A stretch of 40,865 bases of DNA from a phage, in the sequence record PQ785851.1. One strand, written 5' to 3'. A program made the translations under genes and the position numbers. The notes below the pieces were generated by a model that was not told where the DNA came from, searched no databases, and was given only the letters and a program-made list of their open reading frames with translations. This document shows positions 1,897-40,454 of this stretch, piece by piece; positions within the stretch are counted from its first letter, which is position 1, and the number at the start of each line of letters is the position of its first letter.

Positions 1897-1926
1897 TACC
1901 TATCTCTCTTTCGTTTTGGTGAGGTA

Positions 1927-1972
1927 ATGATACCCCACCAGTTAACTTTTTCTTTAGCAATTAGTGCTATTT
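1927..1972 (-). promoter_or_regulatory. promoter-like module, conserved 22-bp element family (copy a), reads toward erf
   Basis: Minus strand reads AAATAGCACTAATTGCTAAAGAA, 17 bp, TATCAT, 6 nt, ACCAAAACGAAAGAGAG, ATG. Confidence 0.45.
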
Positions 1973-3816: not shown

Positions 3817-3861
3817 AATAGCACGATTTGCTAAAGACAAGATGCAATCTTTTGGTATATT
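3817..3861 (+). promoter_or_regulatory. promoter-like module, conserved 22-bp element family (copy b)
   Basis: AATAGCAC-GATT-TGCTAAAGAC, 17 bp, TATATT (TG two bases upstream). Confidence 0.45.
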
Positions 3862-3912
3862 TGTGCGCGTGGCGGCAATGTTGCTGGCCAAAACAACGAA
3901 AGAGAGATAAAA

Positions 3913-4578
3913 ATGAACCTAGCTCTACTAAATGAAGATGTGAAAATGAACAGTTATCAGTTTTTGAATGAAGTCATCAATCCAGCGAGATTGATCGCTG
4001 GCGAGTCTGACGTTCGACACAATGACTTTGTTGAGAGGATTGAGGATGAGCTTGATGGGTTTGAGTTTGACTACGAAAGTTTCGTAATCAAAAGCGATGG
4101 AAGAGGAGGTTATAGAAAGTCAATTAATTCACCAGTGCTTAATATGGAACAGATGCTTCTTGTTGGAATGCGTGAGTCAAAGTCTGTTCGCCGATCTGTT
4201 CTTGAAAAGCGCAAGGAGATGCAAAACACAATCAACAAACAGGCAGAAGTAATCACCAAGATGGTAAGCATTGATGAACTAAAAGAGGCAAGAATTATGC
4301 TTGGTGTGGCTAATGCGCAGAACGCTCACCTTAGCCAGCGAATTGTTGCTGAGCAGCGCATTAACGAAATACTTCTTATGGATAAGAGCATTGACGAGAA
4401 ACTTGACCTTCTCGCTTGCGAGGCTCGCCAGTGCTGGGCATCACGCTCAGACGAAATGGAGGAGAGATTTAAGTATGAAGCTCAATGTTTTGCTCTTAAA
4501 GAAAAAACGGAAGCACTGACCGGATTGATCGAGAATAAACTTGGCATCGACATTAAACTGTTGCTGGAAAAGAAATAG
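3913..4578 (+). CDS. putative Rha-like phage regulatory protein
   Basis: 221 aa; N-terminal ...ESDVRHNDFVERIEDEL... resembles the Rha core as I recall it; coiled-coil-like C-terminus. Confidence 0.3.
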   Translation: MNLALLNEDVKMNSYQFLNEVINPARLIAGESDVRHNDFVERIEDELDGFEFDYESFVIKSDGRGGYRKSINSPVLNMEQMLLVGMRESKSVRRSVLEKRKEMQNTINKQAEVITKMVSIDELKEARIMLGVANAQNAHLSQRIVAEQRINEILLMDKSIDEKLDLLACEARQCWASRSDEMEERFKYEAQCFALKEKTEALTGLIENKLGIDIKLLLEKK

Positions 4579-4625
4579 CACGAATAGCTAAAGACAAAGC
4601 TTATAGATGATGTATGATTACTCCA
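4574..4625 (+). promoter_or_regulatory. promoter-like module, conserved 22-bp element family (copy c)
   Basis: AATAGCAC-GAAT-AGCTAAAGAC, 17 bp, TATGAT, 6 nt (tactcc), ATCGAAACGAAA. Confidence 0.5.
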
Positions 4626-4659: not shown

Positions 4660-4764
4660 ATGACCAACTTAACTACTAACTTAATCGCAACTATCTCTGG
4701 CGCTGCTGTAACTGGTTTCTTTGTGTGGGTTCTGTTGCTGGCTTCGAATTTTAACGGTTTCTAA
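4660..4764 (+). CDS. small hydrophobic membrane peptide (34 aa)
   Basis: ATG at 4660; MTNLTTNLIATISGAAVTGFFVWVLLLASNFNGF; below the ORF-track size cutoff. Confidence 0.3.
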   Translation: MTNLTTNLIATISGAAVTGFFVWVLLLASNFNGF

Positions 4765-4775
4765 GGGGGTTCAGA

Positions 4776-4996
4776 TGAAGAAAATTATTGTAGCTGCGGC
4801 GTTAGTCCTGAGTGGCTGCTCGTCGATGCCTGAGCGCACTTGTACGGCTATTTATGAATCAGGTGGCGCAGAGTACTCGGTTTATGTTTTCGGTACGCAG
4901 CAACGCGGTGATGAACTCCTGTTGCGTGCTGGATACCCATTATCGTTCCATTACGTTTCAGAGAATAATTTCAAAGACCATGATTGTGGTGGTTGA
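4776..4996 (+). CDS. small lipoprotein (possible Cor/Llp-like exclusion protein)
   Basis: Strong RBS AAGGGGG before the ATG at 4776; signal peptide MKKIIVAAALVLSGC with lipobox LSGC; the track ORF 4721 begins upstream in the same frame. Confidence 0.5.
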
Positions 4997-16235: not shown

Positions 16236-16616
16236 TTATTTGGTGTGGAAGTGCGCTGCTTTATTTGCAAACTCATCAGTTGCTGAGCCGATTGACCAAG
16301 GTTTAGTCATTACTTCATTAATTTCTTTTTGGCTAACATCAGCCTCGCGATTGAATTCTTTGTTAACAACCTTAACAATCAGAGTGTAAATTATAACATT
16401 ACGTTCGCATTCAATTTCTGAAGTTTTCATGATTGCATCTCTCATCTCATGAGCATCAATTGCACTAACTTTTGATAACTCACCATGAACGAGACTGAAG
16501 CTCATGTTCTTACACATGTTTACAGCTTTTGCCATGTCCATTTCTTTCTGTTTAGTTTCACCAATGTTACAACCAGTTAAAGCAAGTGCGATTACTGCGG
16601 CGATGATAGCTTTCAT
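16236..16616 (-). CDS. lipoprotein moron inside the tail gene cluster
   Basis: 126 aa; signal peptide MKAIIAAVIALALTGC with lipobox LTGC; has its own promoter-like module upstream, which follows a terminator. Confidence 0.6.
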   Translation of the reverse strand: MKAIIAAVIALALTGCNIGETKQKEMDMAKAVNMCKNMSFSLVHGELSKVSAIDAHEMRDAIMKTSEIECERNVIIYTLIVKVVNKEFNREADVSQKEINEVMTKPWSIGSATDEFANKAAHFHTK

Positions 16617-16645: not shown

Positions 16646-16697
16646 TGAATGAACTATACAGCAACCCACGGCTTAGTCTTTAACAAAAAGTGCTATT
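16646..16697 (-). promoter_or_regulatory. promoter-like module, conserved 22-bp element family (copy k), drives the lipoprotein moron
   Basis: Minus strand reads AATAGCAC-TTTT-TGTTAAAGAC, 17 bp, TATAGT, 6 nt (tcattc), ATCGAAACGAAATG. Confidence 0.5.
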
Positions 16698-25815: not shown

Positions 25816-25891
25816 TGGTGTTCCGCGCTGGACTCGAACCAGCAACTAAGACTTAGGAGGTCTTTGCGTTATCCTGTTACGCCAGCAGAAC
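25816..25891 (-). tRNA. tRNA-Arg (anticodon CCU)
   Basis: Hand-folded cloverleaf, 76 nt: acceptor GTTCTGC/GCGGAAC, T-arm GCTGG-TTCGAGT-CCAGC, anticodon arm AAGAC-CTCCTAA-GTCTT, encoded CCA end. Confidence 0.8.
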
Positions 25892-26171: not shown

Positions 26172-26306
26172 TCAAGCAACCAGCCATTCGATAAACCAGA
26201 TTGTTAACTCGCTCATAACATAACCACAAAACACAACAGCGCCGATGCTGTATGCAACCACCAGACAAAAAGCAAATCTAAAAAATGCTTTATCTAACTT
26301 ACTCAT
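26172..26306 (-). CDS. small hydrophobic protein (44 aa)
   Basis: MSKLDKAFFRFAFCLVVAYSIGAVVFCGYVMSELTIWFIEWLVA; below the track cutoff. Confidence 0.3.
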   Translation of the reverse strand: MSKLDKAFFRFAFCLVVAYSIGAVVFCGYVMSELTIWFIEWLVA

Positions 26307-26535
26307 AAAGGCTATTCCCATTCTCATCGTGGCCAACGCGACCTTTTCTATACCCAGCTATCCACACAAATTTATCCCTCGCAATTAGCGTAGACACAGG
26401 ACCCCAAACCTGAGTAATCAGTGCTGCGACAACTTTATCGTCTTTCTTCTTTGCGCCCAACTTTCCGTACTCGTCGTTCAGCTTGTCAGCCTGGCGCTTA
26501 ACTGCGTTGAAGTATGCATCTTCTAATCCGAACAT
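26299..26535 (-). CDS. hypothetical protein
   Basis: 78-aa track ORF in the early region. Confidence 0.35.
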   Translation of the reverse strand: MFGLEDAYFNAVKRQADKLNDEYGKLGAKKKDDKVVAALITQVWGPVSTLIARDKFVWIAGYRKGRVGHDENGNSLYE

Positions 26536-26642
26536 TTTCTGCCCTCTCGTTGTTTGATTGGTTGATTATATGGCATCAATGCCTGTCACGTTTAGCTATT
26601 CGTGCTGTCTACACCTGGCCATCTATCAAAAGTTGCTAATAC

Positions 26643-27064: not shown

Positions 27065-27244
27065 TTAAATCTTGTTCAATTGCTCAAGAATTTCGTAAGC
27101 CAGTTCTCTAGCTTGCTCTTCTGTTAAGTGGATAGTGTGAACTTGAGGTTCGTCACGCATTCCGCAAGCCTGTGCAATGATGAATGTTGCGTAGCCATCG
27201 AAGTGGTTGGCCTGAAGCTTAGGTTCTGATTGTCGGAATCTCAT
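27065..27244 (-). CDS. small hypothetical protein (59 aa)
   Basis: ATGA start/stop overlap with the upstream ORF 27241..27450. Confidence 0.3.
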   Translation of the reverse strand: MRFRQSEPKLQANHFDGYATFIIAQACGMRDEPQVHTIHLTEEQARELAYEILEQLNKI

Positions 27245-27450
27245 TCTTCAATTACCTCGTATTCGCCTTCTTGAAAACTAATCTCGTTGCCGATTGTTAC
27301 TAAATCAGTATCACGAATCGCCTGAACTGATAAGCTACCATCTTTATACTTACCGGAAACATCAACAATATCACCAACCTGGAAACCGCAATCAGCAAGG
27401 CTAAGTTCGTCACCATCAGCAATGTCAACTTCAATAATCTTGATTCTCAT
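27241..27450 (-). CDS. hypothetical protein
   Basis: 69-aa acidic ORF, first gene after promoter-like module d. Confidence 0.35.
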   Translation of the reverse strand: MRIKIIEVDIADGDELSLADCGFQVGDIVDVSGKYKDGSLSVQAIRDTDLVTIGNEISFQEGEYEVIEE

Positions 27451-27481
27451 CTCTATACTCCATCGTGTTGTCGATGTGGTA

Positions 27482-27528
27482 ATTATGCCTGATTTCTCAG
27501 GCGATTGTTTAGCAATTCGTGCTATTGT
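27482..27528 (-). promoter_or_regulatory. promoter-like module, conserved 22-bp element family (copy d)
   Basis: Minus strand reads AATAGCAC-GAAT-TGCTAAACAA, 17 bp, CATAAT, 6 nt (taccac), ATCGACAACACGA. Confidence 0.5.
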
Positions 27529-28070
27529 CCATTCATGAGTAACTTAGCTTTCCTATAAAACTCCATCGCCACCTCAACCTCTTCCTCACTGTACCGCAAG
27601 TGGTATGGTAGTCTACTAGTGTGCTCACCTTCATTCAACTGGTTGCTCCACTCTTCAACTTCTATCGCATGCATGCCAACGATGTATGGATGAACGTAAA
27701 TCTTATCTCCGATTAAGCAGATGACTCCAGCTTCCTGTAGTGATGGCAGGATGTTATTTTTTAGGTCATGCATGAATCCCCCGTTGAGCCCGACAAATGG
27801 CTTGACCTTTCTCAACGCTTCATATGTTGATCTAATTCCGACAACCCCTTTACCATTCATGCTTTGGGCGTGAATCTTTCGCACAACCACTCCAGACTTT
27901 CTGTTGAGATTCACGCTGAGCAACTCATCTACAGCGCACCAGTACTTTTGTGAGTGTCGGTATCCATTAGCATTGATTGCAACTCGCAGTGGTAAAAGTC
28001 CGTCCTGCGTTGCAGTCTTCATAATTTGCTCATCAGTCAGCTTATCTTCGTTAAAATCAAACATACCCAT
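27522..28070 (-). CDS. short, internally deleted paralog of the 527-aa protein at 30694..32277
   Basis: N-terminus M(G)MFDFNEDKL..LPLRVAINANGYR.SQ and segment NGKGVVGIRSTYEALRKVKPF...CLIGDKIY match both ends of the 527-aa protein. Confidence 0.6.
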   Translation of the reverse strand: MGMFDFNEDKLTDEQIMKTATQDGLLPLRVAINANGYRHSQKYWCAVDELLSVNLNRKSGVVVRKIHAQSMNGKGVVGIRSTYEALRKVKPFVGLNGGFMHDLKNNILPSLQEAGVICLIGDKIYVHPYIVGMHAIEVEEWSNQLNEGEHTSRLPYHLRYSEEEVEVAMEFYRKAKLLMNGQ

Positions 28071-28591
28071 TATTTTGCCTCCTTGATAAGTTCCTGATAT
28101 GCGTTGATCATTGACACCGCGCCATTAAGCTCATCGCCTTGCAATCCTGCTACACTTGGTGACAGCTTCAGTAATCGAGCTTTGAATTCGCCAATGGCTT
28201 TCTCTGCAATATGGTTGTTATCCTTAACTCGCTTTCCTATATTAATTGCTCCGTCAACCAGAGTGATGTATGCGCATCGAACGTCAACATCATTACCAAA
28301 GTCTCCATCTTTTATTGATAGCTTAGCACGAACATTAGCAGCTTGAATCTCTGGCATCCTTGCTACCGTGTTGGCTACATAGGACGCTTTCAATTTTGAC
28401 AGGCTGTACTTGCCATCTGCTTCCAAATCCTCGCTGGCGATGCGACCCATGTCATCAGCTGTTAGGCCGTATACCTGGCGGGCAATGAGGTTAATTGGCA
28501 CGTGAAAGGTGCGGTTTTCTGAACTAAGAGCCTGTCGAGCCATGTAGCGGACGACCTCACCCAAACTTACTGCTTCTTTATGTGCTGACAT
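28070..28591 (-). CDS. hypothetical early protein
   Basis: 173-aa ORF, first gene leftward of the divergent hub at 28592-29288. Confidence 0.4.
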   Translation of the reverse strand: MSAHKEAVSLGEVVRYMARQALSSENRTFHVPINLIARQVYGLTADDMGRIASEDLEADGKYSLSKLKASYVANTVARMPEIQAANVRAKLSIKDGDFGNDVDVRCAYITLVDGAINIGKRVKDNNHIAEKAIGEFKARLLKLSPSVAGLQGDELNGAVSMINAYQELIKEAK

Positions 28592-28624
28592 TTCATACTC
28601 CTGATTGGTTGCCTCTCGTTAAGA

Positions 28625-28659
28625 TGAATACATAGTACCACACATCTACACGTTATCAA
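28625..28659 (-). promoter_or_regulatory. sigma70-like leftward promoter
   Basis: Minus strand reads TTGATA, 16 bp, TACTAT, 6 nt, ATCTTAACGAGAG. Confidence 0.35.
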
Positions 28660-28710
28660 GTGTTATTAGTTAAAACATTCTGGTTTGTTACGGATTATTG
28701 GTGTTAGCAC

Positions 28711-28730
28711 CAGCTATAGCTCAATGTAAA
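28711..28730. repeat. 20-bp element CAGCTATAGCTCAATGTAAA, copy B
   Basis: Identical to 3489-3508. Confidence 0.6.
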
Positions 28731-28878
28731 GTCTGCGTACAGTTTGTAGATAAGGATTATTGCCGAATCCACCCATATATGCCTTTTTATTCCTACAATG
28801 TAGTCATATTCCTACAAGCGTAGGAATATATCATAGAAAATCACCAAATATCACATATCAGCTATCTACATTATCTAC

Positions 28879-28942
28879 ATATATATAATAATAATAATAA
28901 TAATAAAGTAAAAGGTTGATATATATAGATATTATTATGTAA
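28879..28942. repeat. AT-rich element with (TAA)7 tract, copy B
   Basis: GTAAAAGGTTGATATATATAGATATT at 28908-28933 identical to copy A; TAA tract two units longer. Confidence 0.6.
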
Positions 28943-29215
28943 CCATTGCGTAATTTCGCGTTATAGGCGTACAGCATTCCTACGGAGGGTGGGTGCATCT
29001 ACACAACATAACTTCTGTAACGTGTACATCCAAAATGGCTCAGCCAGAATCAAAATCAACTTGTATGGTAGTCCTTCCTCTATTCATTCACTCCCACACA
29101 AATAATTGCTAAATTCGCAACAATCAAAAACATCATTGCATCAGATACAATATTGCTATATGTGCAATAATGAGGTGAATCATTGCAATATCTGCAAGAA
29201 TCAATAAATCCAACG

Positions 29216-29268
29216 AATAGCACTTTTTGCTAATGACATTCATTGGCGACTGGACCATAATGAATCCA
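29216..29268 (+). promoter_or_regulatory. promoter-like module, conserved 22-bp element family (copy l)
   Basis: AATAGCAC-TTTT-TGCTAATGAC, 18 bp, CATAAT, 6 nt (gaatcc), ATCAACAACGAGGAGAGAG, ATG. Confidence 0.45.
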
Positions 29269-29288: not shown

Positions 29289-29474
29289 ATGAAACTTAAA
29301 GACGAAGCGTATGAGCAGCTAAAGCAGGAATGCGCTCTGATTGGGTTGAACGAGATGTACAGCGATATGGTTTTGCGCGGCAAGATTGATATTGACCTCG
29401 CTAAGCAATTCCAGTCAGATGATGAGTATCTATGTTGTGATGGCTTGGGCTGTGACGAATGTTTACCCTGGTAA
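29289..29474 (+). CDS. hypothetical early protein (Cys-rich C-terminus)
   Basis: 61-aa ORF ending ...CCDGLGCDECLPW. Confidence 0.35.
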   Translation: MKLKDEAYEQLKQECALIGLNEMYSDMVLRGKIDIDLAKQFQSDDEYLCCDGLGCDECLPW

Positions 29475-29882: not shown

Positions 29883-30043
29883 TGCTATTACCATCTGAGA
29901 TTAACTATTTTGATCTGGAAGTTATTAGTTCTTACAGCGGCAAGGGCTGGCCTTGCGGGGAATGGTTCAACGAGGACTTGCTTGAATCTCACGAGATTAT
30001 GCTTAAGGCGATTGAGAAGGCGAGAAATAGCACGAATTGCTAA
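29882..30043 (+). CDS. small hypothetical protein (53 aa)
   Basis: Hand-translated; its last codons ...NSTNC-stop lie inside promoter-like copy e. Confidence 0.3.
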   Translation: MLLPSEINYFDLEVISSYSGKGWPCGEWFNEDLLESHEIMLKAIEKARNSTNC

Positions 30044-30077
30044 AGCCCTTCGGGGCTTTTGTTGTATAGTTTCCTCA
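30026..30077 (+). promoter_or_regulatory. promoter-like module, conserved 22-bp element family (copy e)
   Basis: AATAGCAC-GAAT-TGCTAAAGCC, 17 bp, TATAGT, 6 nt (ttcctc), ATCGAAACGAAAGAG; the 17-bp spacer contains a hairpin. Confidence 0.45.
30043..30061 (+). terminator. rho-independent terminator / attenuator embedded in the promoter spacer
   Basis: Hairpin AGCCC-ttcg-GGGCT followed by TTTT. Confidence 0.45.
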
Positions 30078-30102
30078 TCGAAACGAAAGAGAACAAGTAA
30101 TC

Positions 30103-30269
30103 ATGTTTGACAACTTTTACGACGCGATGGAAGAGGCAGTTTTCAGGGCCTCGCTTGATGGAAAGATTTACGGTTTAGTTCAGAAAGTTGATAAGATTGT
30201 TGTGCGTATCGTGCGCAAATCAGTACCAAACAAATTCATGTGGACTACAAAAGAGAGGGCTGAATAATG
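30103..30269 (+). CDS. small hypothetical protein (55 aa)
   Basis: ATG at 30103 preceded by AAGAGAACAAG; MFDNFYDAMEEAVFRASLDGKIYGLVQKVDKIVVRIVRKSVPNKFMWTTKERAE. Confidence 0.3.
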
Positions 30270-30620
30270 ACTACTACCATAACTAAAAATTTCATTAGCA
30301 AAGACAACCAACTGTTTAAAGCTCGCGTTAAAGATGGTGTCGAGCAAATCAAGAAAGATGGCAAATGGGTTAATCTGGAAGAACGTGGTAAATACATTAA
30401 GACCAGAACGCTTTACGTGACACATGTTAACCACAAATCTGGCGTTAAGAAGGATTTCAAAGAAGGAAAGAGATACCAGGTGCTAATGCATAGCGGGATG
30501 GGTCAGTCTGCTGGTTACATTTACGACGAAGATGGTAATGCATGGCAGCTATATCGAAGCGAAGATGTTGGTTTCTACACTCTTTGCCATACTTACCTAT
30601 TTGAATCATCTTACAAATAG
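30267..30620 (+). CDS. hypothetical protein
   Basis: 117-aa track ORF. Confidence 0.35.
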   Translation: MTTTITKNFISKDNQLFKARVKDGVEQIKKDGKWVNLEERGKYIKTRTLYVTHVNHKSGVKKDFKEGKRYQVLMHSGMGQSAGYIYDEDGNAWQLYRSEDVGFYTLCHTYLFESSYK

Positions 30621-30663
30621 CAGCACGAATTGATAATGCATTATAAGCTGCTGTTGATATAAT
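30615..30663 (+). promoter_or_regulatory. degenerate promoter-like module (copy f)
   Basis: AAATAGCAGCACGAATTGATAATGCA, 17 bp, TATAAT; upstream element carries a 2-bp insertion. Confidence 0.3.
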
Positions 30664-30693
30664 GGCCGCTAAGAAACAATACGGAGAGAAGTA

Positions 30694-32277
30694 ATGTTTG
30701 ATTTCAACGAAGATAAACTATCTGTTGAACAAGTTATGGCGATTGCCGCGACCGAAAACCTTCCACCGCTTCGCGTGGCCATTAATGCAAATGGCTATCG
30801 GCAGTCTCAATCATTCTGGAAAACACCTGTGGAGATTGACGCAGGTAATGACAAGTACCCTGTAATATCTCTAGGCAATGACATTGATGTTGTTGGTAAG
30901 CTATCGGCAAATATTTCTCGCTCAGTTCAGTTCCCAGAGTCATCAGCATACATGCACTTTTTGGGTTGTGTGTCCGCTGCGATGCTAGGGCGCTTTACTG
31001 TTGAGTATCACGGAACCCAGCAGCCAACATCGCTTTACGTGGTAACTAGCCAGCCGCCATCTACTGGTAAGTCAGCCATTAACTCTCTGTCAATTTCGCC
31101 AATGATTGCTGAGACTGAGCGTTTGAACGAGGTGCGTAAACGTGACCGCAAAAAGATTATGGCTAAGCTGTCTGCGCTAGCAAAAGAAATGAAACAGGAG
31201 AAGTCACCATCTGAGATGGCTTCACTGTTTGAGGAGAAGGAAGATTTAGAGGAAAAGCTCGAGAAGCTGTGCGATATCGTATTCCCGGTCTCAGATACTA
31301 CGCCAGAAGGTCTTGCACGAATCAACAACCGCCAGGGTAACTTTGCGGTCATCTCGGATGAGGCAACAAGCGTCAACTCATTATTGGGCATGACATACGG
31401 TGATGGTTCCAAGAAAACGAACAGCGAGCTTGTACTTAAAGCGTGGGATGCTGGTAACGTATCTATTGCCCGCGCTAACGCAGAAAACAACATGAGTTTC
31501 GTGGCAATGGGGTGCATCTCTGTAATTGCTCAGGATGAAACAATCAATGCGATTATGAATGCTGGTGCGCGTGGTATTGGTGTTTCCGAGCGTTTCCTTC
31601 TGGTGCGTGAAAAGTCATTTCTTGGAGACCGCGTGTTTGTTGATGAGAATGGCGATTCAACATACGAGGCTATTGATGGTGGTCTTAAGGCAGACTATTT
31701 CCGTCTCGTTCATGAAATTATGAATGAAGTTGAAGTGAAACTGACAGTAAGTGCGTCATCCATGCGCTACCTTAACCGAGCTCGCCAGGAAATGGAACCG
31801 CATCTTGGTGATGGCGGTAAATATTCCCACACGATGTTACGTGGTGCTCTTGGTAAATTTGATAAGCAAGCAATCCGTATTGCCTCAGTATTGCACGTTA
31901 TTCGCAACTGGTTCGCACCGGCAGGGTCGAGTCCGCAGAAATCAAGAGAGATTGAGCTTGAAACAATGCAAGAAGCGGTTATGATTTTCCACGAGTTAAG
32001 CAAGACTTATTTGTCGTCCGCTAGTGCTGCTGGTCATGCTGGTGATAATGCTGAAATGAATAAGCTGGTTGATATCCTGATTAAGCAAGGTAAGAATGGG
32101 AAGGGTGTTGTTGGCGTTCGCTCACTGTATGAAGCAGCACGCAAAGTTAAACCTTTTGAAGGACAGGCTGGCGTAATGACTCGTATTAAGGACCATTTGA
32201 TTCCGATGCTTGATGAGAAAAACTATACATGCCTGATTGGTGATAAGATTTACATTAATCCGCGATTGTTGGGGTGA
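30694..32277 (+). CDS. large early protein with P-loop-like motif (possible replication-associated protein)
   Basis: 527 aa; Walker-A-like ...VVTSQPPSTGKSAINS...; N- and C-terminal domains are shared with the 182-aa ORF 27522..28070. Confidence 0.45.
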   Translation: MFDFNEDKLSVEQVMAIAATENLPPLRVAINANGYRQSQSFWKTPVEIDAGNDKYPVISLGNDIDVVGKLSANISRSVQFPESSAYMHFLGCVSAAMLGRFTVEYHGTQQPTSLYVVTSQPPSTGKSAINSLSISPMIAETERLNEVRKRDRKKIMAKLSALAKEMKQEKSPSEMASLFEEKEDLEEKLEKLCDIVFPVSDTTPEGLARINNRQGNFAVISDEATSVNSLLGMTYGDGSKKTNSELVLKAWDAGNVSIARANAENNMSFVAMGCISVIAQDETINAIMNAGARGIGVSERFLLVREKSFLGDRVFVDENGDSTYEAIDGGLKADYFRLVHEIMNEVEVKLTVSASSMRYLNRARQEMEPHLGDGGKYSHTMLRGALGKFDKQAIRIASVLHVIRNWFAPAGSSPQKSREIELETMQEAVMIFHELSKTYLSSASAAGHAGDNAEMNKLVDILIKQGKNGKGVVGVRSLYEAARKVKPFEGQAGVMTRIKDHLIPMLDEKNYTCLIGDKIYINPRLLG

Positions 32278-33839: not shown

Positions 33840-34016
33840 TTAATCTGCGATAATAAATTCCACCAAAGAGCCATCAATCGGCGCAAGGATGTGAGTCATA
33901 TCGTCGCCATAAATCTTGTAATATCCGTCACCTTGGTACTCTGCATTGTACGGCTGGTTGACTGTAAATGGCAGGGTCTTGGAATTGTTTTTGGTGCAAT
34001 AAATCATTTTAGTCAT
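33840..34016 (-). CDS. small hypothetical protein (58 aa)
   Basis: Hand-translated MTKMIYCTKNNSKTLPFTVNQPYNAEYQGDGYYKIYGDDMTHILAPIDGSLVEFIIAD. Confidence 0.3.
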   Translation of the reverse strand: MTKMIYCTKNNSKTLPFTVNQPYNAEYQGDGYYKIYGDDMTHILAPIDGSLVEFIIAD

Positions 34017-34057
34017 TTTGTGTTTACTCGTTTAGTTTGTCTAGTTTCGATGCGGTG

Positions 34058-34102
34058 ATTATGCCGCATTTCTACGGCATTGGTTATGCAAAAAGTGCTA
34101 TT
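34058..34102 (-). promoter_or_regulatory. promoter-like module, conserved 22-bp element family (copy g)
   Basis: Minus strand reads AATAGCAC-TTTT-TGCATAACCA, 17 bp, CATAAT, 6 nt (caccgc), ATCGAAACTAGAC; overlaps the stop of the upstream gene. Confidence 0.45.
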
Positions 34103-35231
34103 AGCTAAACATTTCTGGGCGACAAGTGAATCGACCAATCTCGCCGAATTTAGGGCTGTAGATTATTACAGACGCCTGGCGATAAGAGCGATAACCACCG
34201 TTTGCGCTGTAAGCATCTTTCGCACCAAGCTGACCATGAGACTCATCAATACCCAAGTTACCTTCTGTAATCGTTTGATGGTGATAATGGCCCGAATGGG
34301 TATAAACATATTCTGATTCACCAAACGCCTTGCGGTGGTCACGTGCCAAAGTTGATAAGCGAGTATCTGGCTTGCGAAGCTCATGACCATGACAGTATCC
34401 AAGAAGCGTCTTGCCAAACTGAGTTACGTGCAACGCAGCAGGTGAAGCATCAACATTTACCCTTGGCTCATCCATATAGAATGCCGCCATTGCTGCACGC
34501 AACCAAATCATACCCGAAAGGTCGTGGTTACCTGGAATAATCTGAACTTCAACTTCTTTATGCTTATCAAGCATCAGGCTAATTGCTCGCCGAGTCGCTC
34601 GAACAGCTACGTAAACAAGCTTATGGTATCGGCTATCCTGGTCCAGCACATGATGACTGGTAGGCGTAACAGCTTCCAATCCATCTGAGTGGAGGAAGTC
34701 GCCACCAATCAGCAATACTGCTTTCTTAGAACAAGGAGCCTTAGCAACAGCGTAATCAAAATAATCATTAAGGACACGCTCTGCGATTTCAGTACTGTAA
34801 TTCTCCCCGCATTCTGCATGGTGCGCCATTGCTCCAATGTGCATATCAAAAACAGGATAAAGACTTAAAGTGTCTTCCCACAAACCAACTCTTAATGCTC
34901 TAGGCTTCTCGCGCGGCAATTCATCAGTAAGCGCTTCAATAGCCTGAAACATCATCTCTTCTTGCTTCTCTTTGTCGATGTCAGACTTAACCCACTGCTG
35001 CTTAATCTCACCATCAGCACCAATAAGACTTGATACACCCTTAACTGCATAACCTTGAGGAATAAGGTTGCTTACATCTCTACCGTGCCCCTCTCCAGCC
35101 TTAGCTAGCTTACTACGACGCAATTCAACATTGCGAATATTCATACCGTACTTCTCTGCTATTGCTTTGTTAGTCATGCCGCTCGCTAGTTCTTCACTAA
35201 GCTGTTCGTTTGTTATTTTTGCAGTTGCCAT
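34101..35231 (-). CDS. HTH-fused metallophosphoesterase (calcineurin-like)
   Basis: 376 aa; N-terminal HTH-like GMTNKAIAEKYGMNIRNVELRRSK; phosphoesterase motifs DMHIG, GGDFLHSDG, GNHD, CHGH, HSGHYH. Confidence 0.6.
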   Translation of the reverse strand: MATAKITNEQLSEELASGMTNKAIAEKYGMNIRNVELRRSKLAKAGEGHGRDVSNLIPQGYAVKGVSSLIGADGEIKQQWVKSDIDKEKQEEMMFQAIEALTDELPREKPRALRVGLWEDTLSLYPVFDMHIGAMAHHAECGENYSTEIAERVLNDYFDYAVAKAPCSKKAVLLIGGDFLHSDGLEAVTPTSHHVLDQDSRYHKLVYVAVRATRRAISLMLDKHKEVEVQIIPGNHDLSGMIWLRAAMAAFYMDEPRVNVDASPAALHVTQFGKTLLGYCHGHELRKPDTRLSTLARDHRKAFGESEYVYTHSGHYHHQTITEGNLGIDESHGQLGAKDAYSANGGYRSYRQASVIIYSPKFGEIGRFTCRPEMFS

Positions 35232-35313: not shown

Positions 35314-35565
35314 TCATACAACCTCCTTCAGCCAGTAATCAATTAAATTCGCACTAATTGCTAATTTCTCGTCCAGGTCAGTCATGCAGAGATTGCCGCA
35401 CGCTGGCGAGTAATAAATCTGAACCCACTTTCCATCCTTCGTCTTCGCATTAACATCAGCATAGTCAGGAGGAAACCAATCAGCAATAGGTATCGCCCTA
35501 AACTTAGCACCACTACTCCAACGCACCAAATCATAATGCTCTGGCTGAAAATCTAAACCTAACAT
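35314..35565 (-). CDS. hypothetical protein
   Basis: 83-aa track ORF. Confidence 0.3.
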   Translation of the reverse strand: MLGLDFQPEHYDLVRWSSGAKFRAIPIADWFPPDYADVNAKTKDGKWVQIYYSPACGNLCMTDLDEKLAISANLIDYWLKEVV

Positions 35566-35931: not shown

Positions 35932-36153
35932 TTATTTAAAATCCTCTGGGCAATCTTTCTTCATCTCTGCAATGTCTGCAACCATTCGGTCGCGCCACGT
36001 TTCGATATCAGTTCGCAAGTAATCTTCCTCAAAACTATAATCCAGGCAACGAGCCAAATCCCAAACATCACCTTTATATCCAGCCTTGTGCAACTCCTGC
36101 GATGCCATTGCCTGAAATAACTCCCACTGCTTGTCAAAGGTTAAAATCGCCAT
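35932..36153 (-). CDS. hypothetical protein
   Basis: 73-aa ORF; start overlaps the stop of the upstream gene. Confidence 0.3.
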   Translation of the reverse strand: MAILTFDKQWELFQAMASQELHKAGYKGDVWDLARCLDYSFEEDYLRTDIETWRDRMVADIAEMKKDCPEDFK

Positions 36154-36353
36154 TACTCAGATACCTCATCAAATTTCTCGCCAAACGCGTTTTTAACAGT
36201 TTCTAAATCGTCTTTGTAAGTTGGGCTGACTTCAAATGCGTAGTTGACATCTTCAACATCAATAAGAATATAACCATCATCTGTGATAGCAAGTGAGTAT
36301 TGGTAACCGGTCTTGCGTGATTCGTAGAATTTTCCAGTATAGATAGTAGCCAT
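36153..36353 (-). CDS. hypothetical protein
   Basis: 66-aa ORF directly downstream of promoter-like module h. Confidence 0.3.
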   Translation of the reverse strand: MATIYTGKFYESRKTGYQYSLAITDDGYILIDVEDVNYAFEVSPTYKDDLETVKNAFGEKFDEVSE

Positions 36354-36384: not shown

Positions 36385-36436
36385 TGAAGTGATAATACAC
36401 CACTTCATCAATTCGTCTTTAGCAATTCGTGCTATT
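36385..36436 (-). promoter_or_regulatory. promoter-like module, conserved 22-bp element family (copy h)
   Basis: Minus strand reads AATAGCAC-GAAT-TGCTAAAGAC, 17 bp, TATTAT, 6 nt (cacttc), ATCGAAACGAAACAC. Confidence 0.5.
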
Positions 36437-36851
36437 TTCTAATCATCTCTGCGAATGCAGCAAGAAAACCATCTCTGCCGTAGGCAACTCCTGCGAAACC
36501 GCCTGATTCCCTTACGCTTTTTAGGAATGACTTTTGCTCATCACTTACTGGGCTAGCCTGTGTTTTCCCAGCCCTCTTTAGCTCTATTGCGCCAAATGGA
36601 TAACTTCCTCGTAATGACTCAGGTATTAGAAATAGGCAGTCTGATACGCCTTTAAGAAGTCCTTTAGCCTGGTCTTTCCTTGCCTGACCAATGCTCTTCA
36701 TTGATTCATTAACTGTGTGCCAGTAAACAACCTGCGGATAGTTATACTTAACCCAATCAGAGCAAAAGATTTGTTCGTCGTCTTCCTTCGGGCATGACTT
36801 CACCGGGCCGCCATAGAACTCGAGGTAGTCAGTTTTGTCTGTAACTTTCAT
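36432..36851 (-). CDS. VRR-NUC domain nuclease
   Basis: 139 aa; ...GVSDCLFLIPESLRGSYPFGAIELKRAGKTQASPVSDEQKSFL... resembles the VRR-NUC core. Confidence 0.55.
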   Translation of the reverse strand: MKVTDKTDYLEFYGGPVKSCPKEDDEQIFCSDWVKYNYPQVVYWHTVNESMKSIGQARKDQAKGLLKGVSDCLFLIPESLRGSYPFGAIELKRAGKTQASPVSDEQKSFLKSVRESGGFAGVAYGRDGFLAAFAEMIRK

Positions 36852-38842
36852 AACAATTCTCCAAAATTCTTAAAAGCGATTATATCTTTACCTTTGCCGT
36901 TTTTTCTATGTGTAACCTGCACTGGTGCGCGGAACTTATCTACGTTCGCCATAATCATTCTCGCATTGCGAAGTCTGCCAATTCTTGTGGCTTCAGCGCG
37001 ATTCTCTATATGAGCAAGGCAGAAGTTCTTCCATAGCACGCTGCAAACTCGATGGTCAGACTCGGGGTTGAAGAATTCCCATGCATTAAACCGATCTCCG
37101 TTATGAGCCATGATATTGTACTTAACAACAATTCCGGTTTGATTCTTACTTAAGCCAACTTGAAAATCATAAACACGAAGGTAATCACCACGACGATACA
37201 TCTTACCTGTAAGGTTAGCATTGGGGTCTTTAAGCATCTCTCCGCACTCTCGACAGACCTTCGCTGCTATATCATTGCGAGTCCCGCACCCTTTTTTGAT
37301 AATAGCCTTTGTCTGCAGGTCTGTAATATCTTCACAAACTGTAAAAGTAAAGAAGTGCTCACATCTCTTTCCGTCAATCTTATTTCCGCATCTACGAGCA
37401 AAAGGCGAATTCTCGTATGAGCAAATTGGGCACACTCGAACCTCTGAATCACCATTGCGTGATGACTTAAACTTCTCGGCCTGAATCTCTTCAATTATTG
37501 GATCAAAGTAAAGTTCAGCCATATCATCAAGTGCGCCAGCAAAGTCCAGGACTAAGTGGTCATCCTTTTTCATACCAATTTCAATATGTTTCTTCTTGAG
37601 AATTCGCATTCCACGACCAAGAAGCTGAATCATTAATGTCAGGCTTCCAATCTTGCGGAGTATGACACTTGTGTCCCACGGAGGCACCGAAACGCCTGTG
37701 GTTAAGCATCCAATCTGAAAAATAATCTTGTACTTTCCGGTCTGGCATTCATCTAGAATTTCCCTTCTCTTCTTCTCACCAGTGGAATCAGTGATTATCG
37801 CGTAAGGATAACCATCTGGTAGAGCAGCAGCCGCTTCATCGCAGTGCATTTTACCAGCGCAAGTTACCAGTGCGGCGTTACGTGTTTCAAGTATTTTGAT
37901 AACGAACCCCATTATATTTTGTGTCATCGTCTGGTTTTCGTGAATCTTTGCAGCCATTGCATCCATTTCTTTTTTGCTGAAATCCTTAACGCCATCACTT
38001 CCATCAGGTGCAAACTCGCTAAGGTCATAACCCAAATCACCAACCTCACCGTAAACAGTTGGAACAACGAATCCCAAATCAACCAGGTAACTGGTCGGAA
38101 CTTGCATTACCGTCTTGCGCCAGAAGCCACGAATATTTGGGTTACTAACTACAATGTGGTCGTTGTTACGATACGGGCTACCAGTCAAGCCGAATATACG
38201 GAGCTCGCGACCATACTTCTCTTTGCAGCGGCGCTTCATTTCAGTGATGATTAGTGTGTACTGCGCACGACCAGTTCCAAGCAATCCGGTATTCACTCCA
38301 TCCTTGAAAACCATTTCGCCTTTCTTGGTGCTCATTTGCTCAAATGTCTCTTCGTTCTCTTCAGCTTCTACGATATCCATGTGGTCCACCATGTGTGCCT
38401 CATCTATTGCGATAACTGCCGGAACATAGTCACCAAGCCCCTTGAACAAGCCGTTTGCCGCCGTTCCTTCACTTGCCACTATAGTTGGGTAGTAAACAGA
38501 TTTAACGTTAAGGCCAGCGCAATATACGCTATTACGGATACCGAAGTTACGGAGTTCTTCAGCATTCTGGCTGATGATTTCTGACTGGCGAGAAAGCACC
38601 ATGTAAGGAAGGCCAAGCTGCTCCATGCGTTTACCAATCATGGCAAGAATGATTGTCTTACCTGCCGATACCGACAGGTCTGCGATGAACGGAGCTTCGT
38701 ACTTAGCAATATTCTTGCCGATTTGGTCGAATGTCACGCACTGGAATGGATACGGCGTAATATCTCCAAACTGATAGTCTCTCTGAATCTGCTTAATCTT
38801 TTCTTGGTCAAAGTTTGCCACTAAGCGTTCTACTGGAAGCAT
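36848..38842 (-). CDS. SF2 (DEAD/DEAH-like) helicase with C-terminal Cys-rich region
   Basis: 664 aa; Walker A ...SAGKT..., Walker B VIAIDEAHMV; C-terminal clusters CPICS...C...C and C..C. Confidence 0.75.
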   Translation of the reverse strand: MLPVERLVANFDQEKIKQIQRDYQFGDITPYPFQCVTFDQIGKNIAKYEAPFIADLSVSAGKTIILAMIGKRMEQLGLPYMVLSRQSEIISQNAEELRNFGIRNSVYCAGLNVKSVYYPTIVASEGTAANGLFKGLGDYVPAVIAIDEAHMVDHMDIVEAEENEETFEQMSTKKGEMVFKDGVNTGLLGTGRAQYTLIITEMKRRCKEKYGRELRIFGLTGSPYRNNDHIVVSNPNIRGFWRKTVMQVPTSYLVDLGFVVPTVYGEVGDLGYDLSEFAPDGSDGVKDFSKKEMDAMAAKIHENQTMTQNIMGFVIKILETRNAALVTCAGKMHCDEAAAALPDGYPYAIITDSTGEKKRREILDECQTGKYKIIFQIGCLTTGVSVPPWDTSVILRKIGSLTLMIQLLGRGMRILKKKHIEIGMKKDDHLVLDFAGALDDMAELYFDPIIEEIQAEKFKSSRNGDSEVRVCPICSYENSPFARRCGNKIDGKRCEHFFTFTVCEDITDLQTKAIIKKGCGTRNDIAAKVCRECGEMLKDPNANLTGKMYRRGDYLRVYDFQVGLSKNQTGIVVKYNIMAHNGDRFNAWEFFNPESDHRVCSVLWKNFCLAHIENRAEATRIGRLRNARMIMANVDKFRAPVQVTHRKNGKGKDIIAFKNFGELL

Positions 38843-38869: not shown

Positions 38870-38927
38870 CGTTGCATTGATGTATAATAACAGCCATCGA
38901 ACCTATTGTTTAACAAAAAATGCTATT
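38870..38927 (-). promoter_or_regulatory. promoter-like module, conserved 22-bp element family (copy j), drives the helicase operon
   Basis: Minus strand reads AATAGCAT-TTTT-TGTTAAACAA, 16 bp, TATTAT, 6 nt, ATGCAACGAAC; its -10 overlaps a plus-strand TATAAT (38883-38888). Confidence 0.45.
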
Positions 38928-38938
38928 GAGGTGATTAA

Positions 38939-39421
38939 ATGAATGCAGTTGATAAGCGAACCATTAACGGCAATAACGGAACTGTCCGCACTGAAGACAA
39001 AAAACAACGAAAACGACCATCGGGTTACTACGTTTTAAAAGATGAAGTAAGAGCCGGGCTACGCGCGCGACTGGAGATTGTTCTTGATTTCTACGGTACA
39101 AAGGCGAACATCGCAAAGCAGTTAAATGTGTCCAACCAAGCTGTATCGGAATGGTTTAACCGCGGTATGATTTCGGCTCGAGGGGCTCAGCGAGCACATA
39201 ATGCGTACAAGCGAAATAAGGAGGGATTTCGAGCTACATTCTGCCGACCAGACCTGCAATTCGACGGAAACGGAAAACCGCTAACACTTCGATGCAAGAA
39301 GCGCCATATGCTTCGCGTAGTTACCGATGCAGAACTAGCAACAAAGCCACCCTGTCGACCATGGCGAAAGAATAAGATTGCCAACGAAGCCGCACGAAAA
39401 GCTAAAGAAAGATCTGAATGA
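38939..39421 (+). CDS. Cro/CI-type HTH DNA-binding protein with basic C-terminal extension
   Basis: 160 aa; HTH-like ...GTKANIAKQLNVSNQAVSEWFNRGMIS...; RBS GAGGTGA. Confidence 0.5.
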   Translation: MNAVDKRTINGNNGTVRTEDKKQRKRPSGYYVLKDEVRAGLRARLEIVLDFYGTKANIAKQLNVSNQAVSEWFNRGMISARGAQRAHNAYKRNKEGFRATFCRPDLQFDGNGKPLTLRCKKRHMLRVVTDAELATKPPCRPWRKNKIANEAARKAKERSE

Positions 39422-39432
39422 GTATGTATAAT

Positions 39433-39461
39433 GCCCTCAAGTTAAATGCGAGGGCTTTTTT
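39433..39461 (+). terminator. hairpin plus T-run immediately before the primase start (attenuator-like)
   Basis: GCCCTC-aagttaaatgc-GAGGGC followed by TTTTTT, then ATG at 39462. Confidence 0.35.
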
Positions 39462-40385
39462 ATGCATCACGATAAGAATGAAGTTTTGTCAAAAATGAAG
39501 GGCATGTGGTCAAAGTTTTACGAATCTCACATGGGCTGGACAAAAGAAAACCTTAGCAAGAAACACGGGCCATGCCCATACTGCTTTGGCACTGACAGAT
39601 TCAGATTTACCGACGAAATAGGCAGTGAAAAAGGAAATGGCTCGGCAGTTTGTTCGAAATGCGGAAGTGACTCCGGTATAGGATGGGTCATGAAGTGCAC
39701 TGGATCGTCCTTCGCCGATTCAGTAAATTTGCTTGGTGACTGGCTGAACTTAACACCAATTGAGGTTATAGTTAAAGCAAACAAGCAAGCATCCAGAACT
39801 CATCGTTATAAGATGGGCGCTCAAGTAGACCATGAAAAAGTTTTGGAGGTCATGGGGAGAACTCAGCGAGTTGACTCAAGTCCACTCACGACATATGAGG
39901 GTATATACTCTGAATCTGGTTTTGATGTTGGTATAGCTAAAGATGGTTCAATGATTCATGCCGTGCCTTGCTCCATGGTTTATGAGGATGGGCTTGGTGA
40001 TGAGTTCTGTAACGTAATGTTTATTGATGAGGATTCAAATGTTAAGTTCCTTGCTGGTGATTATACTCGTGATTCTGTTGCTGTCATTGGTTCTAGGCAG
40101 GACAATAGTTATACTTATGTTGTTGACAATTATATTGATGGCGTACGTGTTCACCTTGCTACTGGGGGTCGCGAGGTGTTTGTTGCTTTCTCCTGTTACA
40201 ATATGGAGATGGTTATACACCGCGACAAGTCAAGGAAGTTCAGAATTGCTTGCCATGATTATGATATCGATATCCTTGCTGTTGCTGACGATCGCAATGT
40301 TGATGTGGTGATTCCCAATGACGGTAAGTCATTTAAAACAGGCATACGCAAGAAAGTGTACAAAGCCAACGACTTAATAAACTAA
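39462..40385 (+). CDS. DNA primase (zinc ribbon plus TOPRIM-like)
   Basis: 307 aa; Cys pairs CPYC...CSKC; acidic TOPRIM-like segment ...ACHDYDIDILAVADDRN... Confidence 0.6.
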   Translation: MHHDKNEVLSKMKGMWSKFYESHMGWTKENLSKKHGPCPYCFGTDRFRFTDEIGSEKGNGSAVCSKCGSDSGIGWVMKCTGSSFADSVNLLGDWLNLTPIEVIVKANKQASRTHRYKMGAQVDHEKVLEVMGRTQRVDSSPLTTYEGIYSESGFDVGIAKDGSMIHAVPCSMVYEDGLGDEFCNVMFIDEDSNVKFLAGDYTRDSVAVIGSRQDNSYTYVVDNYIDGVRVHLATGGREVFVAFSCYNMEMVIHRDKSRKFRIACHDYDIDILAVADDRNVDVVIPNDGKSFKTGIRKKVYKANDLIN

Positions 40386-40407: not shown

Positions 40408-40430
40408 TGCATTAAAGATGGTAGAATTAG

Positions 40431-40454
40431 TTTTAGCAAATTGTGCTATTTTAC
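40431..40454. promoter_or_regulatory. inverted copy (i) of the conserved 22-bp element, upstream of the tail-fibre gene
   Basis: Plus strand reads TTTAGCAAATTGTGCTATTTT; a TG-n-TATTTT extended -10 lies 19 nt before the ATG at 40471. Confidence 0.35.

Follow-up and report, generated by a model that had tools for sequence, protein, structure and literature searches.

The 40,865-nucleotide stretch of phage DNA examined here (record PQ785851.1; the whole stretch is referred to below as the window) groups by megablast with the T1-like siphophages (Drexlerviridae), with phages TR1, TR2, Rao1 and CY1 aligning at 86-98% in parts and Rtp-like and Veterinaerplatzvirus phages appearing as remoter relatives. 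Its gene content is that of a T1-like phage, and includes genes for terminase, portal, tape measure and J-like tail proteins, RecE/Erf recombination genes, two helicases, a primase, and holin, endolysin and spanin genes, together with many small early open reading frames (ORFs). We found no RNA polymerase or sigma factor gene in the window, and no repressor or integrase gene; its relatives are virulent T1-like phages. Recurring across the window is a short element, AATAGCAC-N4-TGYTAAAGAC, which a first-pass annotation of the same sequence had placed at the head of a family of promoter-like modules, and which proves to match the marbox, the binding site of the host activators MarA, SoxS and Rob.

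Ten copies of this element are present at up to three mismatches, against 0.09 expected from shuffled sequences, and two looser ones, at 34081 and about 30616, proved genuine as well. Copies lie at 1950, 16676, 27505, 34081, 36415 and 38906 on the minus strand and at 3817, 4574, 29216, 30026 and 30616 on the plus strand. All 11 copies of the first-pass annotation are therefore genuine, with coordinates correct to within 2 nt (the copy given as 27507 really spans 27505-27526, minus strand), but four were missed, at 26589-26608(-), 39389-39408(+), 40430-40449(-) and 35348-35367(+). This brings the total to 13 complete promoter-like modules and two orphan copies, where 11 had been listed. Each module runs in the order element, 17 unconserved nt, a TATNNT or CATAAT hexamer, 6 nt, and a leader that begins with A. 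Printing every copy with its flanks confirmed that the -10-like hexamer follows the 22-mer after 16-18 nt, most commonly 17 (equivalent to 18 nt from the 20-bp marbox defined below), with 6 nt to the leader. The leader is usually A-rich, of the ATCRAAAC or ATCGAAACGAAA type, and leads through a purine-rich ribosome-binding site to an ATG 21-45 nt past the start. The claim that every copy points at a downstream gene holds for all 13 modules and fails for the two orphans.

To define what is conserved, a sequence logo was made from 58 non-identical modules, with phages TLS and PKP126 kept for a separate pattern search. Information in the logo is restricted to 19 bp, A-ATAGCAC-KWWTT-GYTAAA, with background levels on either side; the GAC tail of the proposed 22-bp element is not conserved across relatives. 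G4, C5 and G13 of the element are found in 58/58, 58/58 and 55/58 modules, respectively. The window in which a -35 hexamer would lie reads TAAAnM and falls to background beyond the marbox; sequence on the upstream side of the element is not conserved either. The hexamer reads T (50/58) A T n n T, where the A and the final T were used to select modules and so are not independent observations. In addition, G is found at -14 in 43/58 modules and T at -15 in 21/58, A at the predicted +1 in 49/58 and C at -1 in 35/58, and the leader is moderately conserved and A-rich. These features agree with the view that a conserved element stands in place of a -35, as at activator-dependent promoters, ahead of a sigma-70-type -10, and are consistent with a start about 7 nt downstream of that -10 in the predicted modules.

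A BLAST search with the element found it in 1150 phage records, but its occurrence in multiple copies was confined to Drexlerviridae of Enterobacteriaceae with genomes of 45-52 kb (phages of Klebsiella, Escherichia, Salmonella, Shigella, Citrobacter, Enterobacter and Cronobacter). The repeat has already been published, without an explanation. A 2024 re-annotation of TLS described a 21-nt direct repeat, aaATAGCACnnnTTGnTAAAA, at 21 sites, co-oriented with transcription and lying about 76 nt 5' of start codons, and found also in T1, Rtp and Rogue1 (PMC11447400). The authors suggested a role as a stoperator, an enhancer-binding site or an upstream (UP) element, and found only three sigma-70 promoters in TLS (PMC11447400). 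In the record of Citrobacter phage Stevie, copies of the element are annotated as bare repeat_region features.

Identity of the element with the marbox

The marbox/soxbox consensus, AYNGCACNNWNNRYYAAAYN, describes the site of the monomeric dual helix-turn-helix (HTH) activators MarA, SoxS and Rob (PMC2064960). This consensus was not derived from phage sequence, and positions 2-21 of the 22-bp element fit it. A scan of the window with AYNGCACNNWNNRYYAAAYN returned 12 sites at up to one mismatch, against 0.92 expected, and 10 of these 12 are the phage element (nine from the first-pass annotation plus the copy at 26589). As in a marbox, the recognition elements GCAC and YAAA lie seven bp apart. 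The consensus marbox obtained for MarA by chromatin immunoprecipitation sequencing (ChIP-seq) is gcactaattgctaaa (Sharma et al., PMC5684230), to which the copy at 1967..1953(-) is identical at 15/15 positions; most other copies match at 12-14/15, and those at 34098 and 38923 at 11/15.

We extended this comparison with a weight matrix built only from 33 in-vivo E. coli MarA sites (Table 1 of PMC5684230). The top 13 sites in the window are all phage elements, at 14.1-19.2 bits, whereas the E. coli MarA sites score a median of 11-12.4 bits on the same matrix, with a leave-one-out upper quartile of 14.1. Thirteen sites in the window reach at least 14 bits, as compared with 1.07 (maximum 3) in simulated sequence. 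By these scores, the phage elements are on a par with the best chromosomal marboxes. Near-identical E. coli sites at yneO, yeeF, ypeC and ybjC were bound by 0.3 uM MarA in vitro (PMC5684230).

The spacing and orientation of the modules are also those of a known promoter class. At class II marbox promoters, a forward marbox overlaps the -35 region and is centred near -41 (PMC10268841, PMC12052159, PMC9638938, PMC8811837), and a canonical -10 is present without a recognisable -35 (PMC10268841). The activator contacts region 4 of sigma-70, the beta flap and the alpha subunit's carboxy-terminal domain, and region 4 is displaced from the DNA (PMC12052159, PMC6900184, PMC8811837, PMC10268841, PMC9638938). 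Read directly, E. coli micF consists of ACAGCACTGAATGTCAAAAC, 18 nt and TAGAAT, with the site centred at -41.5 from the annotated 5' end, and ybjC of a forward marbox, 19 nt and TACAGT. Of the 13 modules in the window, 11 have 18 nt between marbox and hexamer, one has 19 and one has 17; the marbox centre lies at -40.5 relative to the predicted +1. All 13 modules have the forward orientation (GCAC...TAAA, then -10, then gene) seen in micF and defined in PMC8811837, and for 13 of the 15 copies a gene in the same orientation begins about 76 nt downstream.

When marbox hits from the window, Rao1, T1 and Rogue1 were pooled, a TAnnnT-type hexamer was found at exactly 18 nt in 41 of 61, with four hits each at 17 and 19 nt and background levels at other offsets. 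The pattern GCACNNWNNRYYAAA-N19-21-TANNNT occurs 8 times in the window (0.03 expected), 11 times in TLS (0.08 expected) and 13 times in Klebsiella phage PKP126 (0.03 expected). In sequence, orientation, spacing and absence of a -35, the modules have the form of class II marbox promoters, and this form is conserved across the family.

Copies of the element differ in their central triplet, which in the TLS copies (Supplementary Table S1 of that study) and in those of the window is of the GAA class, of the TTT class, or A-rich or TAA. Copies with TTT often have TGTTA instead of TGCTA, and TTTTT-class copies in the window precede tail, lysis, helicase and first early genes. These classes might tune affinity for different activators, or timing.

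The thirteen modules and their surroundings

Beginning at the left end of the window, the module at 1920..1970 (-) joins marbox 1970..1951 (ATAGCACTAATTGCTAAAGA) to TATCAT at 1932..1927 across 18 nt, with a predicted +1 at 1920. It scores 19.2 bits, is the copy that matches the MarA ChIP consensus at 15/15, and lies upstream of the ERF recombinase gene (1246-1896); the TAG of its marbox is the stop codon of the exonuclease gene at 1967-2938. At 3818..3868 (+), marbox 3818-3837 (17.8 bits) is followed after 18 nt by TGgTATATT (hexamer 3856-3861) and then by an anti-repressor-like gene (3913-4578) with an atypical, hairpin-containing leader. This leader (3868-3912, +) is unlike all others in lacking ATCGAAAC and in carrying a GC-rich hairpin, GGCGGCAATGTTGCTGGCC, and it is kept in Rao1 and Rogue1. 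The stop codon of the same gene is the TAG of the next marbox (4575-4594), which belongs to the module at 4575..4625 (+), with an 18-nt gap, TATGAT at 4613-4618 and +1 at 4625 (ATCGAAACGAAA; 16.5 bits). Downstream lie a 34-aa hydrophobic membrane peptide (4660-4764, +) and a Cor/Llp-like lipoprotein with a lipobox (MKKIIVAAALVLSGC...; about 4770-4990, +), which is probably a superinfection-exclusion protein of the Cor/Llp type.

The module at 16646..16696 (-) sits past the major tail gene and its terminator, and consists of marbox 16696..16677, 18 nt, TATAGT at 16658..16653 and +1 at 16646 (16.7 bits), ahead of the gene at 16236-16616. One of the newly added modules, 26558..26608 (-), has a marbox (26608..26589, ACAGCACGAATAGCTAAACG; 16.5 bits) with no mismatch to the 20-bp consensus, followed after 18 nt by TATAAT at 26570..26565, +1 at 26558 and the gene at 26299-26535. 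Its neighbour at 27475..27525 (-) likewise has a marbox without mismatches (27525..27506; 18.4 bits), with CATAAT at 27487..27482, +1 at 27475 and a GAAA-loop terminator hairpin in the spacer, and precedes the gene at 27241-27450.

The first promoter of the plus-strand early arm is the module at 29217..29268 (+; marbox 29217-29236, 19 nt, CATAAT 29256-29261, +1 29268; 14.1 bits), upstream of the gene at 29289-29474. The module by which the first-pass annotation named the family, 30027..30077 (+), has its marbox at 30027-30046, TATAGT at 30065-30070 and +1 at 30077 (18.4 bits), and the gene at 30103-30267 downstream; a terminator, AAAGCCCTTCGGGGCTTT (30042-30059), overlaps the 3' end of its marbox and the spacer. 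The degenerate copy belongs to the module at 30620..30670 (+; 12.8 bits), whose marbox, GCAGCACGAATTGATAATGC, has four mismatches and a duplication of GCA after AATAGCA, and is followed after 18 nt by a consensus TATAAT at 30658-30663 and then by the DUF3987 gene at 30694-32277.

On the minus strand, the module at 34051..34101 (marbox 34101..34082, a hairpin in the spacer, CATAAT 34063..34058, +1 34051; 13.1 bits) lies ahead of the gene at 33840-34016 and the holin, endolysin and spanin genes. In the module at 36385..36435 (-; marbox 36435..36416, 18 nt, TATTAT 36397..36392, +1 36385; 18.4 bits), upstream of the gene at 36153-36353, an inverted repeat GAAGTG/CACTTC brackets the -10. The helicase gene at 36848-38842 lies behind the module at 38877..38926 (-), in which marbox 38926..38907 (ATAGCATTTTTTGTTAAACA; 15.0 bits) is separated by 17 nt from TATTAT at 38889..38884. 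This -10 overlaps a TATAAT on the opposite strand that belongs to a divergent regulator gene, so that the promoters of the helicase and of this Cro-like regulator (38877-38895) use the same base pairs and are expected to be mutually exclusive. The same overlap of -10s is shared by TLS, between DR11 and P57. The last module, 39389..39462 (+), also absent from the first-pass annotation, has marbox 39389-39408, 18 nt, TATAAT at 39427-39432 and +1 at 39439 (16.5 bits), and lies ahead of the primase gene at 39462-40385.

Many copies had been said to overlap stop codons or terminators, and this is what we see: in four modules the upstream gene ends on the TAG of ATAGCAC, and the spacer and core are strongly enriched in hairpins. 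The marbox also provides a translation stop at 1951-1970, 4575-4594, 27506-27525, 36416-36435 and 30027-30046; the stop of the upstream gene is either the TAG in ATAGCAC or the TAA in GCTAAA, and the element closes two of the three reading frames. Across the 58 modules, promoter cores (-37 to +6) have a mean folding energy of -9.4 kcal/mol, against -5.9 kcal/mol for random genomic 43-mers, and 52% of cores reach -10 kcal/mol or lower, against 11% of random segments (Mann-Whitney p = 2e-7). Two types of hairpin are found. The first has a GNRA loop in the spacer, with the -10 region as its U-rich tail, and is the terminator of the upstream unit; the annotated terminators of T1 map exactly at this position, directly after the element. 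The second is an inverted repeat that brackets the -10, such as ggggTATAGTtacccc, with its 3' arm at -6..-1 and without a U-tract, and is found in about half of the modules (for example at 36392-36412 and 1921-1940 in the window and at 1470-1500 in T1). Modules such as those at 4575, 26589, 39389 and 3818 have no hairpin.

At the primase promoter, the terminator of the regulator gene (gccctc-N11-gagggc-T6, 39433-39461, +) begins at -6 and ends at the primase ATG. Transcripts that start at +1 (39439) lack the 5' arm and are therefore unable to form it, whereas read-through RNA could terminate there; the 3' arm also bears the ribosome-binding site. With terminator hairpins and stop codons held within the same 50 bp, transcription units would be insulated from one another, as the first-pass annotation had suspected.

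The two orphan copies have no usable -10. The first, at 40430..40449 (-; ATAGCACAATTTGCTAAAAC; 17.4 bits), has TGCAAT in its place, and lies next to a predicted promoter of the opposite strand, an extended -10 (TGgTAGAAT, 40419..40427, +) ahead of the side tail-fibre gene, which starts with the ATG at 40472 and extends past the end of the window. The reversed marbox covers the predicted tail-fibre start (about 40434), a position which suggests that whichever protein binds there would repress and not activate; the same layout is found in T1 (34902-34921) and Rao1 (31476-31495). The second orphan, at 35348..35367 (+; TTCGCACTAATTGCTAATTT; 16.0 bits), is antisense within the gene at 35314-35565 and without a -10; it is kept in Rao1, where as in the window it may act as a decoy, be a relic, or have arisen by chance and been maintained by the coding sequence.

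A generic sigma-70 promoter scan of the window showed no enrichment (38 found, 32.3 expected). A canonical promoter, TTGATA-16-TGgTACTAT, lies at 28632..28659 (-) and precedes the DUF7174 gene (28070-28591), the first of the early genes. This promoter is the counterpart of P01 in TLS and, judged by its sequence, would be independent of an activator. It falls within a 625-bp non-coding stretch (28592-29216) that separates the two early arms and contains an (AAT)n run (28888-28905) and short ctacat/ctaca repeats, and which is probably a pac or terminal-repeat region. A tRNA was the sole match in an Rfam scan of the window: a tRNA-Arg gene (anticodon CCU) lies at 25816-25891 (-), with the early genes on one side and terS on the other, an arrangement shared with Rogue1.

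Candidate readers of the element and competing explanations

Taken together, the sequence and layout of the modules make it probable that they are class II promoters of the MarA/SoxS/Rob type, read by an activator of the host. Under such a scheme, a host AraC-family dual-HTH monomer (Rob, MarA or SoxS, or RamA in Klebsiella) would bind the marbox, which spans about -50 to -31 and points in the direction of transcription; one HTH would read GCAC and the other TAAA, seven bp further on. With the marbox in the -35 position, sigma-70 region 4 would be held by protein contacts and not by a -35 hexamer, while sigma-70 would read the TAnnnT -10, often with G at -14. RNA polymerase would then initiate seven nt downstream, on the conserved A, and the resulting leader would be A-rich and 21-45 nt long. 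Nearly all non-structural operons, together with a tail gene and the lysis cassette, would be served by about 13 promoters of this kind, and the first early gene would be served instead by its canonical sigma-70 promoter. That host proteins bind and activate here we infer from the features of the DNA, and any one of them may be the protein that acts. Rob is constitutive and the tightest marbox binder, yet is largely sequestered, while MarA and SoxS are induced by stress (PMC5684230, PMC10268841).

Several points weigh against this reading. Unstressed E. coli has scarce MarA and SoxS and largely sequestered Rob (PMC5684230, PMC10268841). T1-like phages are nonetheless fast in ordinary broth without inducers of mar, sox or rob; were dependence strict, either a small active pool would have to suffice or the phage would have to raise it. 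MarA-type proteins, moreover, are usually modest activators, and many copies, especially in T1, TLS and PKP126, have a TGn extended -10 that might allow them to fire without an activator. Classical genetics of T1 resistance reportedly yielded tonA and tonB, and not rob, mar or sox, and we know of no report of rob, mar or sox mutants that resist T1, although redundancy among the three activators could mask such a phenotype. As for the sites themselves, position 19 (Y) of the consensus is lost in the phage copies, and positions 0 and 3 are conserved more than the consensus demands, which may be due to the TAG doubling as a stop codon.

A number of other known sites were compared with the element and set aside. 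Sites for CRP, FNR, Fis, IHF and lambda CII, compared by eye, do not fit. A T4 MotA box was rejected on its distance from the -10 (the box here ends 20 bp away) and because Pfam searches of 40 ORFs gave no MotA or AsiA match, a UP element on the invariant G/C positions and the lack of conservation upstream of the element, and a stoperator of the mycobacteriophage L5 type on the fixed distance 5' of the -10 and start and the failure to find a repressor or integrase gene. A UAGCA/UGCUA hairpin in RNA was discarded given its 5-bp stem and asymmetric conservation. An operator for a dimer of the Cro-like HTH protein was rejected since ATAGCAC and TTGYTAAA are asymmetric and do not co-vary with the recognition helix.

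The first-pass annotation had suggested a reader encoded by the phage, with the Cro-like HTH protein at 38939-39421 as a candidate. In its broader form, this explanation holds that a phage DNA-binding protein (the Cro-like protein, DUF7174 or an unrecognised small early protein) activates or times the promoters, and that the element resembles the marbox by chance or through mimicry; we consider this explanation unlikely. The gene at 38939..39421 (+) encodes a 160-aa single-HTH regulator resembling Cro of P22 (P22_Cro E 1.6e-5, which is below the Pfam cut-off; phrog_2856; 1rzs Cro E 0.044), with homologues in T1 gp23, Rtp52 and TLS gp57, and it is conserved in every Drexlerviridae genome examined. 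The TLS regulator has one of the three consensus sigma-70 promoters of that phage (P57), as would fit an immediate-early factor, and DUF7174 is likewise first behind a canonical promoter; there are, besides, many small early ORFs without known function. However, the recognition helices of the Cro-like protein differ between the window (SNQAVSEW), T1 (SNQTVQGW), TLS (NLKTVWGW), PKP126 (SIQVVQQW) and Rogue1 (TRQAVEEW), and the helix varies in Rtp as well, while the DNA element is invariant in all of these genomes. The inverted repeat TAGCA-N5-TGCTA, which had suggested an operator, is present in most copies, but the common TGTTA and AGCTA variants disrupt it, in an element that is asymmetric and strictly oriented; this dyad is a by-product of ATAGCAC and GCTAAA.

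Nor did searches reveal a phage relative of the host activators. With MarA and SoxS as queries, phmmer found no match among all the six-frame ORFs of the window or among those of the complete Rao1 genome (best E 0.68), tblastn of MarA against 50,697 phage records showed no Drexlerviridae among the 40 of 171 matches listed, and Pfam searches of 40 non-structural ORFs gave no HTH_18, AraC, MotA, AsiA or sigma match. Alignment by hhalign to MarA, SoxS and Rob gave a probability of 0.1% for the Cro-like regulator family and 0.2% for the DUF7174 family. The AlphaFold model of DUF7174 (28070-28591; mean predicted local distance difference test score, pLDDT, 77.5) is of mixed alpha/beta structure and gave no fold match in a PDB search. 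Furthermore, a marbox promoter at 29217 directly opens one of the early arms, and a chance 15/15 match to the host consensus combined with the spacing of micF is very unlikely. The asymmetry of the element, the varying helix of the Cro-like protein and the identity with the marbox in sequence and geometry together favour a reader of the host MarA/SoxS/Rob type.

It is also improbable, in our judgement, that these promoters work without an activator, with polymerase using a good -10 alone and the element acting as a UP-like sequence, as a contact for sigma or alpha, or simply as sequence that tolerates the lack of a -35. The frequent G at -14 (43/58 modules) and T at -15 (21/58), the consensus TATAAT of several copies and the growth of T1 without any mar, sox or rob inducer would suit this explanation, and UP elements were among the proposals of the TLS authors (PMC11447400). 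But UP elements are A/T tracts, whereas the invariant bases here are G, C, A, C and G; a proper TGn is missing from most copies in the window; and near-identity over 19 bp in about 1000 genomes demands a sequence-specific reader, in a sequence that is the MarA consensus.

Least credible of all is a role other than that of a promoter (as a roadblock of the stoperator kind, as a signal for termination or processing that acts on read-through RNA, or as a decoy that soaks up the host Mar/Sox/Rob proteins), as the TLS authors' stoperator idea (PMC11447400), the two orphans without a -10, the overlap with stop codons, the adjoining hairpins (with T1 terminators directly after the element) and a possible UAGCA/UGCUA pairing, in which the C-to-U variant retains a G-U pair, are set against a 5-bp A/U-rich stem that is too weak, a virulent phage in which no repressor gene was found, the co-orientation of 13 of 15 copies with a gene start about 76 nt downstream, and a sharp 18-nt gap and C(-1) A(+1) context that persist in modules without hairpins.

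Implications and comparison with known systems

The repeat was known, and so was the class II marbox promoter; what appears to be new is to equate the two. In the literature searched, we found no paper linking the marbox, MarA or Rob with T1-like phages, although an earlier remark in the Rtp or T1 genome papers is possible, and the papers on KanT1, MSK and SU57 contain nothing relevant to the element. On a wider view, which we put forward tentatively, the Drexlerviridae (T1, TLS, Rtp, Rogue1 and the Klebsiella Webervirus phages) may have ceded almost all promoter recognition to host MarA, SoxS, Rob or RamA. To our knowledge, they would then be the first virulent phage family to use the site of a host stress activator as its main class of promoter; and we know of no explanation that has been given for transcription in T1, one of the seven classical T phages. 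Annotators of these phages see hardly any sigma-70 promoters, and each genome in the family carries a repeat that has gone without explanation, for which the marbox offers a concrete and readily testable mechanism.

If host activators do read these sites, lytic expression would be adjusted to the antibiotic, oxidative or bile stress that the host is under, and would be favoured in multidrug-resistant strains in which mar, ram or sox is derepressed, with the reversed marbox placing the late tail-fibre gene under the opposite control. Phage productivity would be tied in this way to salicylate, superoxide, bile salts and clinical resistance mutations in marR, ramR and soxR, which would bear on combinations of phages with antibiotics, and especially on the Klebsiella Webervirus phages used in therapy. 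The same reading would help to annotate the promoters of about 1000 deposited genomes better, and would make the compact 50-bp units of stop codon, terminator and promoter of possible use in synthetic biology.

The closest known counterparts of the modules are the class II promoters of E. coli micF and ybjC, with which they share a forward, asymmetric 20-bp marbox with GCAC and YAAA seven bp apart, its centre near -41, the gap to the -10 (18 or 19 nt), and a sigma-70 -10 without a -35 hexamer. They differ from their chromosomal equivalents in being nearer the optimum than typical marboxes (within the upper quartile of in-vivo MarA sites), in numbering 13-20 per 45-kb virulent genome as the main promoter type, and in being fused with stop codons and terminator hairpins and sharing a common A-rich leader. 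The 21-nt repeat of TLS, aaATAGCACnnnTTGnTAAAA, is the same element, oriented with transcription and about 76 nt before gene starts, but its fixed 18-nt link to a -10 and its identity with the marbox were not reported (PMC11447400).

Among phage systems, the middle promoters of T4 (MotA and AsiA) likewise have a box that replaces the -35 ahead of a good sigma-70 -10. The MotA box, tTGCTTtA, is superficially like TTGCTAAA; its centre lies at -30, and 11-13 bp separate it from the -10. The TGCTAAA of the phage element, in contrast, ends 20 bp from the -10, and the T4 factor is encoded by the phage, where the one proposed here would be encoded by the host. A similar arrangement is found at the activator-dependent late or middle promoters of Mu (Mor, C), P2 (Ogr) and lambda pRE (CII), where an activator that binds at the -35 position or immediately upstream makes up for a -35 that is weak or absent; those activators, however, are phage-encoded and mostly bind dyad or direct-repeat sites, whereas the Drexlerviridae element has the form of a monomer site belonging to a regulon of the host.

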